From a virus: DNA of 38,717 bases. The notes under the pieces were generated by a model, which was not told the origin of the DNA, searched no databases, and was given only the letters and a program-made list of their open reading frames with translations. The stretch is from UHGV virus genome UHGV-0007863; one strand, written 5' to 3'. A program made the translations under genes and the position numbers. This document shows, in pieces, positions 5,762-36,142 of the stretch; the first letter of the stretch is position 1, and every line of letters begins with the position of its first letter.

Positions 5762-6346
5762 TTATTGTTTGCTTTTTTCGTTCTGGTTGATGACAAATTC
5801 AATGTAACTTTCGATCTTTGCTTTCTCGGTTTCGGGTAACAATGCGTAGCGTGAGCGGTCATAGTTGATAGTCGCAGGGTCGTGCGGGTGAATCAGTAGT
5901 TCATATCCGTGACGCCCGAATGCGGATGCAACATTCTCCAGGGTGGAAATGGAAACGCTGACCTCATTGTTTAACAGGCGGCTGATTGTCACCTGGGCGA
6001 CGCCGGATGCGCGGTGAAGTTTTCCCTGTGTTGAAAGGTCGCGGCTTTCGCTCATCCAGCGTTCCAGGTTGTGAGCCGCCAGCTGACCTATATCGCTCGG
6101 GCCGACAGGCTGAAAACCCTCCTGAGAAAGCGAACGATCAATATCAAGCCAGTTACGGGGTTTATTGGCGGCAGCTTCAATTTTTCGTGCAACCTGGTCG
6201 CCGATAACCTTCTTGCCAAGAGCCCAGCGGTTTACCAGATTTGCCTGAGTTCCAAGTTTTTCTGCCATCCGCGTCTGAACACCATTGAATTCACGGTCGA
6301 TCAAGTCGTTGAGATTTTGCCTGCGGACGTCCTGGATACTTTTCAT
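5762..6346 (-). CDS. Prophage repressor (CI-like) with two HTH-like segments and no recognisable S24 peptidase domain
   Basis: 194 aa; HTH-like segments GVQTRMAEKLGTQANLVNRW and SGVAQVTISRLLNNEVSVSISTLENVASAF; no Ser-Lys dyad domain seen; divergent from a cro-like gene. Confidence 0.7.
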   Translation of the reverse strand: MKSIQDVRRQNLNDLIDREFNGVQTRMAEKLGTQANLVNRWALGKKVIGDQVARKIEAAANKPRNWLDIDRSLSQEGFQPVGPSDIGQLAAHNLERWMSESRDLSTQGKLHRASGVAQVTISRLLNNEVSVSISTLENVASAFGRHGYELLIHPHDPATINYDRSRYALLPETEKAKIESYIEFVINQNEKSKQ

Positions 6347-6401
6347 TTTCTGGAAAATCGCCTCATATATGAATCAGTAGATGATTCAATTTAAAGCAAT
6401 A

Positions 6402-6464
6402 TTACCCAACAGGTAAATGCACCTCATAGGTAACTATCCTTGATTTTTGTTACCTTATGGGTGA
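6402..6464. promoter_or_regulatory. Tripartite operator between repressor and cro-like genes: TTACC-CAACA-GGTAA (6402-6416), GCACC-TCATA-GGTAA (6419-6433), TTACC-TTATG-GGTGA (6450-6464)
   Basis: Three copies of the same dyad in the 154-bp divergent intergenic region, overlapping a -35-like TTGATT at 6440-6445. Confidence 0.65.
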
Positions 6465-6500
6465 ATATTTATTATCTGAAATAAATATCAGGCAATAGCT

Positions 6501-16389: not shown

Positions 16390-16473
16390 GAACTGGAAGC
16401 AATGAGTTATGCCTTCCGTGGCTGTACTGGTTTACAGCATGAAGTCATCGCAATGGCGTCCTGCTGTAAAAAG

Positions 16474-33035: not shown

Positions 33036-33231
33036 GGAAGTGTTGTGTTTTTAATTATTTTGAGTGTGATAATTTCTGGTGTATTGTTATTTATTGACCG
33101 CTACAAATATTTTCTTAACCCTCAGACTCAAGCTATTTGCTGGTTCATCTTTGTTGTGCAGGGAGTAGTTCTTGTTGCAAGCCTTATTGAGGGGAGGCCT
33201 CTTATTTTTACTGGGTAAATTAGGTGACTAC

Positions 33232-33528
33232 ATGCAAGCTATAGGATTCATTGTTTATATCGTCGTTGGTCTTTTTCAGTTGGCAGCAATTATGGCTGGG
33301 CTTGAATCATGGTGGGGATTGCACTGGATAATTGCAGCCCCCATTGCTTTCATCGTGAGCTATATTCCATTTGTTGGAGCGATTGTTGGTATGGTTGGCG
33401 CTGTGGATGTATGGCGGTGGGAGTGGTGGCAGGCTGGCCTTCTCTTCTTTGGTGGGATCATCTTTGCTATTGTCTGCGGTGGAATGTCATCATTTTTCGA
33501 ATGGCTATCATTCAGAAAAGGGACGTGA
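33232..33528 (+). CDS. Small polytopic membrane protein (moron)
   Basis: ATG 33232 with AGGTGA upstream; 98 aa, almost entirely hydrophobic; preceded by an AT-rich stretch at 33036-33231. Confidence 0.5.
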   Translation: MQAIGFIVYIVVGLFQLAAIMAGLESWWGLHWIIAAPIAFIVSYIPFVGAIVGMVGAVDVWRWEWWQAGLLFFGGIIFAIVCGGMSSFFEWLSFRKGT

Positions 33529-33536
33529 CATGTCAC
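33525..33536. repeat. 12-bp perfect palindrome GTGACATGTCAC, copy 3 of 3
   Basis: Read directly; overlaps the TGA stop of the membrane-protein gene. Confidence 0.7.
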
Positions 33537-33537
33537 A

Positions 33538-33562
33538 GGCCGCTTTCGCGGCCTTTTCTTTA
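33538..33562 (+). terminator. Rho-independent terminator after the membrane-protein gene
   Basis: GGCCGC-TTTC-GCGGCC followed by TTTTCTTTAT; overlaps the 3' end of the convergent minus-strand gene. Confidence 0.6.
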
Positions 33563-33817
33563 TGTGGTTTGTTTTCGTAATTGTTCGGCACAATAGTCGA
33601 GATGTGTTTGCAGATCCCGCATAGACATCTGTGAGCTGGTGACGTAGTTAATCAGTGCAGTCAGTTCGGCAAGTGGGCCATCGACATTAAATCCATCCTT
33701 ATCGAGATCCCGGAGTAATTTCATCAAGTGCGATCCTTCCACCAGTGACCTGACGCCTCCCGGCGTGTGAATCCTTTCGGTAAATCCGTCTTCCAGTGGA
33801 TAGTGATACTGCTGCAT
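33560..33817 (-). CDS. Small LexA-box-associated protein; candidate SOS-inducible antirepressor
   Basis: 85 aa from ATG 33817 (MQQYHYPL...), GGAG 8 nt upstream; ORF track gives a TTG start at 33835; a LexA box sits 20-40 nt upstream; function is inference. Confidence 0.5.
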   Translation of the reverse strand: MQQYHYPLEDGFTERIHTPGGVRSLVEGSHLMKLLRDLDKDGFNVDGPLAELTALINYVTSSQMSMRDLQTHLDYCAEQLRKQTT

Positions 33818-33836
33818 CTTATCTTCTCCATGCAAT

Positions 33837-33856
33837 AACTGTATATTTATACAGTA
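33837..33856. promoter_or_regulatory. LexA (SOS) box AACTGTATATTTATACAGTA
   Basis: CTGT-N8-ACAG with AT-rich spacer; 18/20 to the consensus TACTGTATATATATACAGTA; overlaps the likely promoter of the minus-strand gene. Confidence 0.75.
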
Positions 33857-33893
33857 TCAAATAATTTGTTTGCTATCCAGCACGTTTTGCAAA

Positions 33894-33908
33894 TTACCTG
33901 AAAGGTAA
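33894..33908. promoter_or_regulatory. Perfect TTACC-TGAAA-GGTAA upstream of the tail-fiber gene
   Basis: Read directly; a half-site GGTAA at 33955-33959 follows. Confidence 0.6.
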
Positions 33909-34012
33909 TATCTATTCATATTTACAGCCTTTCTATCCATATGTGGTTTTTCAGGTAATAGAATAACCAGATATGCGGCGCAACGGGTGCTGCGACTATC
34001 TGGAGATTTAAC

Positions 34013-36142
34013 ATGACGGTCTCAACCGAAGTTGACCACAACGAATACACCGGTAACGGCGTTACGACATCGTTTCCGTATACTTTTCGAATTTTCAGAA
34101 AATCAGACCTGGTTGTTCAGGTGTCTGACCTGAACGGGAACGTAACAGAATTGGTCCTGGATACCGGTTATACGGTAACTGGGGCGGGCACTTATAGTGG
34201 CGGTTCTGTGGTTCTTCTGTCTCCGCTTGCTACTGGATGGCGAATTACGATAGATCGTGTGCTTGATGTAGTGCAGGAGACAGACCTTCGCAATCAGGGA
34301 AAATTTTTCCCCGAAGTGCATGAAGATGCCTTTGACTACCTGACGATGCTGATCCAGCAATGTTTTGGGTGGTTCAGACGTGCATTGATGAAGCCCTCTC
34401 TGCTTGCAAAATATTACGATGCAAAGCAAAACAGAATTTCTAACCTTGCAGATCCATCACTTGAGCAGGATGCTGTAAATAATCGCTCAATGCGTAATTA
34501 TGTCGATGCTGCAATCGCCGGGGTTGTTGGTGGTTTTGGTTGGTTTATTCAGTATGGTTCTGGGGCTGTGCACCGAACGTTCCAGGATAAGATGAGAGAC
34601 ACCATTAGTGTTCGTGATTTTGGTGCAAAAGGAGACGGCATAACAGATGATACTGTAGCAATTCAAAATGCTATTAATGCAGTACCAGAAGGGGCTATAC
34701 TTGGATTTTATGGTGGTGAATTTGTTTTTGATAAGGTTGAATTGTTTAAGCCAATAACATTAGTTGGTGATGCAACGTTAATTCACAACGGATTTAGAAT
34801 AAAATCTAGCAGAATCCGATCACTTTTATCTGGCGTTCAGAAATGCAAGGATTACTCCGAGTCTTCAAGAGCATTTTATTGCTATGCAAATGAAGACCAA
34901 AGAGATTATGACGATATTCAGATTTTATTTAATAGATTTGAAGGTTTCTTTTACTCTACGGCATTTGTTGCAAAAAACTATTATTTGGAGAATGACCCTA
35001 ATTCAAGAATTGTCAAAAACACAAAAGTAATAGGGTGTACATCAGTTGCTCCTGATTCTGTAAATGCCGGTCATTTTCAACATATAGGCGTTACAAATGC
35101 TGAAACATCACATAACTCAACTTATGGCGGACAAAATGCAACATCATACAACTTCATTAACCAGAATGGATTTGTAAGGATTATAGGAAATTATGACCAT
35201 AACAATAGCTATGGTTCATGTGAGCTTGAGAACTCAATGGTGAGTAACTCAGTCATATCAGGTAATACGTTTTCGTCATATTTATGGGTGGATGATACAA
35301 GTAATGTTACTATTTCTGGAAATACAGTTTCATCAGGGATCAAAGTAACATCGCAAACTGACGATGTTCATAATATAACCATATCAGCAAATACCACAAA
35401 ACGGATTACTATAGAGCAATTTGGAGAATCTCCAACAGGTCTGGTATATGGTGCATTAATTTCCTGCAACACTATTACTGGCGACAGTGATGGAAGTTCA
35501 GACATTTTATGTACGTCACTTGTTACAGGTGAAATTTCATCAAATTATTGTCATGGATCAGAAAAAAATATATCAATTGTCCGCCTGGATTCTTCTGATA
35601 TAACCGTTAGAAACAATAAAGGAAACAAAGGATTACTTACAATAAGTAACGATGGTGGAAGGATAATTGAATATGGCAATGATTCTATGGTTCTGTCTGG
35701 AAGCATAGATAGCAGACATATACATAATTTATTACATCCAGACACATCGTATTTAGATCTACCGGGGAAATATCTGCACGGAACTAAATATACTGGCAGT
35801 ATCCCCCCCGGTTCCACAGGAACTGTATCACTTCAAATACCATCAGGGGCAAGCCTTGTTTTCAGGGGGGTTTCTATATGGGTTCTAATTAGAGATGTTA
35901 GCAATAACAATATATCGTCATTCAGAATTGATGGTTCATATAGAGTTGTTGGTGGAAGTGTTGGTCTTAGTTTTGCTGATGCTTATTCGAAACTCGGGGT
36001 GGATGCAAACTCTATAACAGTGTCAAACAATAACAGCACTTCTGACAATATCAGCATAGCAATTAAAAACACAGATTCATCAAAAACCCTTCAGGTTACT
36101 GTTATGCCGGAGGTTTCAAGCAGGTTAGGTATTGAGGAATAG
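34013..36142 (+). CDS. Tail fiber / tailspike with T7 gp17-like N-terminal adaptor domain and beta-helix-like, AT-rich distal domain
   Basis: 709 aa; N-terminus parallels the T7 tail-fiber N-terminal pattern; distal part has repeats such as NVTISGNTVSSGIKV...NITISANTTK; base composition turns AT-rich from about 34600. Confidence 0.75.
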   Translation: MTVSTEVDHNEYTGNGVTTSFPYTFRIFRKSDLVVQVSDLNGNVTELVLDTGYTVTGAGTYSGGSVVLLSPLATGWRITIDRVLDVVQETDLRNQGKFFPEVHEDAFDYLTMLIQQCFGWFRRALMKPSLLAKYYDAKQNRISNLADPSLEQDAVNNRSMRNYVDAAIAGVVGGFGWFIQYGSGAVHRTFQDKMRDTISVRDFGAKGDGITDDTVAIQNAINAVPEGAILGFYGGEFVFDKVELFKPITLVGDATLIHNGFRIKSSRIRSLLSGVQKCKDYSESSRAFYCYANEDQRDYDDIQILFNRFEGFFYSTAFVAKNYYLENDPNSRIVKNTKVIGCTSVAPDSVNAGHFQHIGVTNAETSHNSTYGGQNATSYNFINQNGFVRIIGNYDHNNSYGSCELENSMVSNSVISGNTFSSYLWVDDTSNVTISGNTVSSGIKVTSQTDDVHNITISANTTKRITIEQFGESPTGLVYGALISCNTITGDSDGSSDILCTSLVTGEISSNYCHGSEKNISIVRLDSSDITVRNNKGNKGLLTISNDGGRIIEYGNDSMVLSGSIDSRHIHNLLHPDTSYLDLPGKYLHGTKYTGSIPPGSTGTVSLQIPSGASLVFRGVSIWVLIRDVSNNNISSFRIDGSYRVVGGSVGLSFADAYSKLGVDANSITVSNNNSTSDNISIAIKNTDSSKTLQVTVMPEVSSRLGIEE

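Follow-up and report, generated by a model that had tools for sequence, protein, structure and literature searches.

The prophage described here carries, among its late genes, a small opposite-strand gene preceded by a LexA box, and we estimate at about 0.88 the probability that this locus serves the lysis-lysogeny switch as its SOS-sensing arm and is an orthologue of the Ant/Rep system found in Salmonella phage SPC32H. Such an arrangement would explain how DNA damage is sensed by a prophage whose repressor cannot cleave itself.

The window, by which we mean the whole 38,717-nucleotide stretch of DNA analysed, represents a nearly complete prophage of E. coli that belongs to the epsilon15/phiV10 type (genus Uetakevirus), with about 98% identity to phages vB_EcoP_ZX5, HEMP4 and TL-2011b across about 80% of its length. 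A P22-like phage was ruled out, the nearest phages being epsilon15/phiV10-like. An earlier note on this DNA had placed an 85-aa minus-strand gene at 33560-33817 in the late region. This assignment, which includes the stop codon, is borne out: the gene, here called ant, begins with an ATG, preceded by GGAG at a distance of 8 nt, and this start is homologous to that of SPC32H ant, while the longer, TTG-initiated version of the open reading frame (91 aa) does not begin at the homologous position. The gene is flanked by large virion protein genes and the tailspike gene, a context conserved in SPC32H, phiV10 and epsilon15. In the GenBank records of SPC32H and SPC32N, where the orthologues are annotated ant and rep, the opposite-strand ant likewise follows genes for a virion protein and a small membrane protein and precedes the tailspike gene. 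The earlier note had also likened the location to the sieA/immI (mnt-arc-ant) region of P22. That comparison did not survive: the phage is epsilon15/phiV10-like rather than P22-like, so the positional analogy is a loose one, and Pfam revealed no homology to ANT/KilAC, Arc or Mnt.

Two small hydrophobic genes sit between the last large virion gene and ant. They encode membrane proteins of 57 aa (33045-33218, two hydrophobic segments) and 98 aa (33232-33528, three hydrophobic segments), the latter already described as a small hydrophobic membrane protein beside ant and assigned here to PHROG 3075, a family of unknown function. The 98-aa protein gave a holin-like Pfam match below threshold (E = 0.027), and searches of Pfam, PHROG and NCBIfam lent no support to a sieA-like role. 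The records of SPC32H and phiV10 annotate just one membrane protein, of 46 aa, directly after the large virion gene; the phiV10 region is nonetheless similar to the 98-aa gene of the window, and this gene is also found in YDC107_2, phiv142-3 and HEMP4. Between the convergent membrane-protein gene and ant lies a GC-rich hairpin, AGGCCGC-TTTC-GCGGCCT (33537-33554), which on the plus strand is a terminator with a T-run and has its counterpart among the annotated terminators of epsilon15 and phiV10. On the minus strand the hairpin stands 6 nt beyond the ant stop codon, has a GAAA tetraloop and lacks a U-run; therefore, ant transcripts may continue, antisense, into the membrane-protein gene.

The 85-aa protein has one match in the PDB, to 5D50 chain E, 'Anti-repressor protein' (phmmer E = 4.6e-47, residues 2-85 against 3-86), and is 86.9% identical to SPC32H Ant over 84 aa. 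PDB entries 5D50 and 5D4Z belong to the SPC32H Ant/Rep system. A search of the protein against known antirepressors had been proposed in the earlier note, which regarded the gene as a candidate SOS-inducible antirepressor; the match to SPC32H Ant supports that proposal, as do the type of repressor and the orthologous LexA box described below. Among PHROG families the protein matches only 450, 15539 and 1760: the match to PHROG 450 is strong (E = 1.1e-47), although this family is marked 'unknown function', while that to PHROG 1760, 'anti-repressor', falls at the C-terminus of the family. No Pfam or NCBIfam model describes the protein, and in particular no Pfam match to DinI, ANT/KilAC, Arc or Mnt was obtained at E <= 1. 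Comparison with the genes of SPC32H, epsilon15, Tyrion and BUCT554 gave a dN/dS of about 0.05, with synonymous sites near saturation. The ant gene is thus under strong purifying selection, in lineages with either type of Rep.

The LexA (SOS) box, AACTGTATATTTATACAGTA, occupies positions 33837-33856, or −39 to −20 from the ant ATG. Read on the ant strand, it is TACTGTATAAATATACAGTT and matches the consensus TACTGTATATATATACAGTA at 18 of 20 positions; the CTGT-N8-ACAG core is intact, with both arms and an AT-rich spacer. An 18-of-20 match at these coordinates had been claimed before, and both sequence and position proved exact. At a limit of three mismatches to the consensus the box stands alone in the window, and 100 dinucleotide-preserving shuffles yielded no such site. 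No further LexA box was found at that threshold in the 38.7-kb window, and none lies at rep. Two further CTGT-N8-ACAG matches, at 16422 and 20964, have GC-rich cores and lie inside long open reading frames according to the list of these frames. The box ends 19 nt before the ant ATG and 6 nt before the Shine-Dalgarno sequence.

Sequences upstream of ant were aligned from 13 phages of E. coli, Salmonella, Enterobacter and Klebsiella, the last with four members. The distance from box to ATG is the same in the window and in ZX5, TL-2011b and phiV10 (E. coli), SPC32H and epsilon15 (Salmonella), and Tyrion and BUCT554 (Enterobacter). Leaving aside SPC32N, the sole exception, the nine phages from E. 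coli, Salmonella and Enterobacter all keep the CTGT and ACAG arms unchanged and differ in the spacer, the pattern expected of a protein-binding site. The ZX5 box is identical to that of the window, those of TL-2011b and phiV10 differ from it by two and three spacer bases, respectively, and the SPC32H box matches the consensus at 17 of 20 positions as against 18 here. SPC32N differs from SPC32H at 2 of the 3252 nt compared, one difference being a C-to-A change in the CAG of the box. This change is reported by Kim and Ryu (2013) to abolish LexA control and to render Ant constitutive. The four Klebsiella Uetakeviruses carry ATGT-N8-ACAG upstream of ant instead of CTGT-N8-ACAG (L005, 16941-17056; L009, L010 and L012, 582-697), a change of the same kind as that of SPC32N, in the other half-site, and LexA may have a reduced hold on ant in this lineage, or none.

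A consensus scan of the minus strand found no σ70 promoter for ant. Adjoining the LexA box is a −35-like hexamer, TTGATA (33855-33860, minus strand), a candidate element of the ant promoter whose T-G is invariant in the alignment of relatives. By eye, the candidates were limited to weak ones: TTGATA followed after 17 nt by TATTGC, a poor −10, or a −10 inside the box. The recA promoter likewise has a −35-like element adjoining its LexA box. By analogy with SPC32H, and given the weak TTGATA-17 nt-TATTGC layout, an overlap between the LexA box and the ant promoter is plausible. The Shine-Dalgarno sequence (GGAG, 33826-33829, minus strand) recurs ahead of the ATG in each of the 13 aligned relatives, with a one-base shift in the four from Klebsiella.

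The presumed target of Ant is the 194-aa prophage repressor encoded by rep (5762-6346, minus strand), which is of the SPC32H Rep type. Rep is a full-length homologue of PDB 5D50 chain A, 'Repressor' (E = 3.5e-42, residues 1-190). Its Pfam matches are confined to helix-turn-helix families, a YdaS-type domain at residues 21-61 and HTH_3 at residues 106-147, and Peptidase_S24 gave no Pfam match, in agreement with an earlier reading of two HTH-like segments and no S24 domain. Because it lacks this domain, Rep cannot autocleave. Identity to SPC32H Rep is 42.7% overall, with 53% in the N-terminal and 41% in the C-terminal domain. Among phage records, homologues of Ant (n = 35) and of the Rep family (n = 37) are distributed over sets of phages that are essentially the same.

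A 17-bp palindrome, ATTACC-N5-GGTAAT, occurs at 13 sites in the window with two or fewer mismatches, against about 1.6 expected, and at least 11 of the 13 immediately precede transcription units: int, the leftward early genes, rep/cro, the replication genes, the small terminase gene, the late operon and the tailspike gene. The sites include those at 135, 5627, 5689, 6401, 6786, 8688, 8750, 13786, 13804, 16951 and 33893-33909. In the rep-cro intergenic cluster (6401-6465), a clear ATTACC-N5-GGTAA site at 6401-6417 is followed by two degenerate copies, read by eye, at about 6418-6434 and 6449-6465; the resulting spacings of 17 and 31 bp equal those of the three sites in the SPC32H rep-cro region, at 34389, 34406 and 34436. 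SPC32H carries the same motif at corresponding places even though its Rep is 43% identical.

One of these Rep-operator-like sites, the perfect palindrome ATTACCTGAAAGGTAAT at 33893-33909, is found in the gap that separates ant from the tailspike gene, at a distance of 36 nt upstream from the LexA box. Its half-sites are invariant in 13 relatives; the GenBank record of epsilon15, which marks the sites of this motif as bound by the repressor, labels the counterpart of this one 'protein_bind: repressor'. The palindrome may control the tailspike promoter, ant, or both. Closer to the tailspike gene, GGTAATAGAAT at 33949-33964 is invariant in the window, SPC32H, SPC32N and phiV10. It consists of the operator half-site TTTCAGGTAAT and TAGAAT, a hexamer with good resemblance to a −10 that precedes the tailspike ATG by about 50 nt, and is a candidate Rep-controlled tailspike promoter. 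The tailspike gene would need a promoter of its own because the terminator at 33537-33554 cuts it off from the upstream late operon.

From homology and the literature on related phages, the following sequence of events can be proposed. In the lysogen, host LexA would occupy the box at 33837-33856, on or immediately beside the ant promoter, and keep ant silent, while Rep would sit on the ATTACC-N5-GGTAAT operators in the control regions of the early and late genes, the integrase gene and the tailspike gene. Upon DNA damage, RecA would be activated, LexA would cleave itself and ant would be transcribed; Ant would then bind the non-cleavable Rep, which would leave its operators, turning on the lytic genes. 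In SPC32H, according to one review (PMC7380047), Ant is produced after LexA self-cleavage and inactivates the repressor through protein-protein binding; according to another (PMC9638917), two Rep dimers are bound by an Ant tetramer, which disrupts the tetrameric, DNA-binding form of Rep. Treatment of a ZX5 lysogen with mitomycin C gave approximately 100-fold induction (PMC9782041). Rep and Ant of ZX5 are 99.5% and 98.8% identical, respectively, to those of the window, but the induction cannot be put down to the small Ant by itself, as a gene for a Bro-N antirepressor lies just downstream of ZX5 ant.

The pairing of Ant with Rep deserves separate consideration. In the work of Kim et al. in PNAS in 2016, the C-terminal domain is said to be the part of Rep that Ant binds. 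We infer the pairing in this phage, rather than taking it as given, because that domain is 41% identical to its SPC32H counterpart, compared with 87% for Ant; the co-occurrence of the two families and the selection on ant argue for it.

The two proteins have diverged incongruently. Between the window and SPC32H, Ant is 87% and Rep 43% identical; between the window and Tyrion, the values are 86% and 78%, and between SPC32H and BUCT711, 65% and 63%. When grouped by similarity, Ant joins the E. coli phages with those of Salmonella, whereas Rep joins the E. coli phages with those of Enterobacter. This incongruence points to exchange of modules and suggests that Ant can cope with widely differing C-terminal domains in Rep. 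It also invites an alternative, which we regard as improbable, in which ant is SOS-induced but Ant is without effect on its own Rep, acting instead on the repressors of other phages such as co-resident prophages, or in which the induction of the E. coli relatives proceeds mainly through a Bro-N antirepressor. Besides the contrast between Ant and the Rep C-terminal domain and the discordant similarity patterns, two bodies of work lend this alternative some weight: the antirepressors of Gifsy and Fels-1 act on heteroimmune repressors (PMC3121763), and overexpression of the ZX5 Bro-N protein moves that phage towards lysis (PMC9782041). Bro-N antirepressors are encoded directly 3' of ant in ZX5, phiV10 and Tyrion, and those of Tyrion (gp20) and phiV10 (p23) possess an Ant-like C-terminal domain. 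Against it, Ant and the Rep family co-occur in every phage record found, ant is under strong purifying selection in lineages with either Rep type, and the window and SPC32H both lack a Bro-N gene. Because of this last point, Ant is the only candidate for an SOS link to the non-cleavable repressor in these two phages.

Two other alternatives question the site or the protein itself. That the palindrome upstream of ant is not a working LexA site but an AT-rich palindrome that arose by chance or binds some other factor, and that the gene is constitutive or controlled by Rep only, seems to us very unlikely: shuffling never produced a site within three mismatches of the consensus, the nine phages outside Klebsiella keep the arms, but not the spacer, constant, and the sole exception, SPC32N, is the phage reported to express Ant constitutively. 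Such a view could draw on the empty promoter scan, on the Rep-operator-like palindrome 36 nt upstream and on the ATGT that replaces CTGT in one half-site of the Klebsiella relatives. We likewise give very little credence to the small protein being an SOS-induced accessory factor, either a DinI-like modulator of RecA or a superinfection-exclusion or immunity factor as in the immI/sieA region of P22. The location of ant beside the small membrane-protein genes (33045-33218 and 33232-33528) does resemble that of accessory-gene regions, but the protein shares 87% identity with an antirepressor whose crystal structure includes the bound repressor, has no Pfam match to DinI, ANT/KilAC, Arc or Mnt at E <= 1, and has no arc or mnt genes adjacent.

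Returning to the SOS-induced antirepressor of Rep, we put forward tentatively, as a possibility we would not favour over its opposite, an extension in two parts: that Ant is a broad-specificity 'master key' that inactivates divergent Reps and cross-induces related prophages, as the Gifsy antirepressors do, and that ant is under double control by LexA and Rep through the conserved operator. If true, the double control would create positive feedback, in which removal of Rep by Ant leads to more Ant, and would sharpen the commitment to lysis.

About 10% of complete E. coli genomes (531 of 5426) carry the locus (window positions 33530-34020, containing ant and the LexA box), at 80-99% identity. 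Among the genomes listed, ant is labelled 'hypothetical protein' in every E. coli entry, as it is in most phage records. The epsilon15 record cites PDB 5D50_A for the repressor while leaving gp19 hypothetical, although Ant is chain E of the same entry, and in the GenBank record of ZX5 the small Ant is left 'hypothetical'. The 2022 paper on ZX5, the closest E. coli phage, characterised only the Bro-N protein and makes no mention of SPC32H or LexA (PMC9782041). Phages related to this prophage family include some used in O157 typing and one that came from an O103:H25 strain associated with an outbreak.

What is new here is accordingly small. The Ant/Rep system is already known, in the same phage genus, since 2013, with a structure since 2016, and identical or near-identical copies of ant are already public; the system was reportedly described by Kim and Ryu in J Virol in 2013 and the structure by Kim et al. 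in PNAS in 2016. The remainder consists of the annotation gap and of the conservation of Ant (87%) far beyond that of the Rep domain it reportedly binds (41%). The practical gain is in annotation, as a crystal structure and functional data exist for an orthologue that is 87% identical.

P22 immI resembles the present locus in having an antirepressor gene among the late genes, close to the tailspike gene. P22 Ant, however, is a large protein, and Arc is a further regulator of its gene. P22 ant is under the control of Mnt, not LexA, and a P22 ant mutant stays SOS-inducible (PMC7380047). Membership of the P22 immI module was rejected for the present gene, in which Pfam detected no ANT/KilAC, Arc or Mnt and whose neighbours are the small membrane-protein genes and the tailspike gene.

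A closer parallel is provided by GfoA and GfhA of Gifsy-1 and Gifsy-3, Tum of phage 186 and AntC of N15, each of which is encoded by a small LexA-repressed gene outside the immunity region and binds a non-cleavable repressor, freeing it from DNA (PMC3121763). These phages are sipho- and myoviruses, in contrast to the phage described here, and neither Pfam nor PHROG searches revealed a sequence relation between Ant and the Gifsy antirepressors, Tum or AntC. The complexes differ as well, being reported as A2B2 for Gifsy (PMC3121763) and as an Ant tetramer with two Rep dimers for SPC32H (PMC9638917). The C-terminal half of 186 Tum is DinI-like (PMC3121763); assignment of the present protein to a Tum/DinI-like family was rejected, with no DinI match in Pfam at E <= 1 and PHROG matches only to 450, 15539 and 1760. 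The earlier note had named Tum and Gifsy as functional analogues, rightly so, but the true homologue, SPC32H Ant, was not named there.

Among proteins related in sequence, the Bro-N antirepressors (Tyrion gp20, phiV10 p23, PHROG 1760) are longer, and Ant corresponds to their C-terminal domain alone, without the Bro-N DNA-binding-like domain. The C-terminal 78 or so residues of Tyrion gp20 align with nearly the whole of Ant at 40% identity (E of about 1e-19). Their genes lie directly downstream of ant in Tyrion (gp20; L006, 20417-21121), phiV10 (p23, truncated; L003, 2571-3155) and ZX5 (ORF4; L013, 2374-3069), where they presumably share its LexA-controlled transcript. The window differs from these phages in this respect: no second Ant-like or Bro-N antirepressor gene was found in it, tblastn matching only ant itself.

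The nearest counterparts are phiV10, vB_EcoP_ZX5, TL-2011b, HEMP4 and phiv142-3, whose Ant is 97.6-100% and whose Rep is at least 99% identical to those of the window; in the E. coli Uetakeviruses the gene (PhiV10p24 and equivalents) is annotated as a 'hypothetical protein'. The characterised relative is SPC32H, also a Uetakevirus, with which the window shares the gene order, the strand of ant, the distance between box and ATG, a Rep with two helix-turn-helix domains and no S24 domain, and the positions of the operator motif. It differs from SPC32H in having an Ant one residue shorter, a Rep that is 42.7% identical, E. coli as host and the additional 98-aa membrane-protein gene beside ant. In every feature compared, namely sequence, size, box position, repressor type and context, the window agrees with the SPC32H Ant family.
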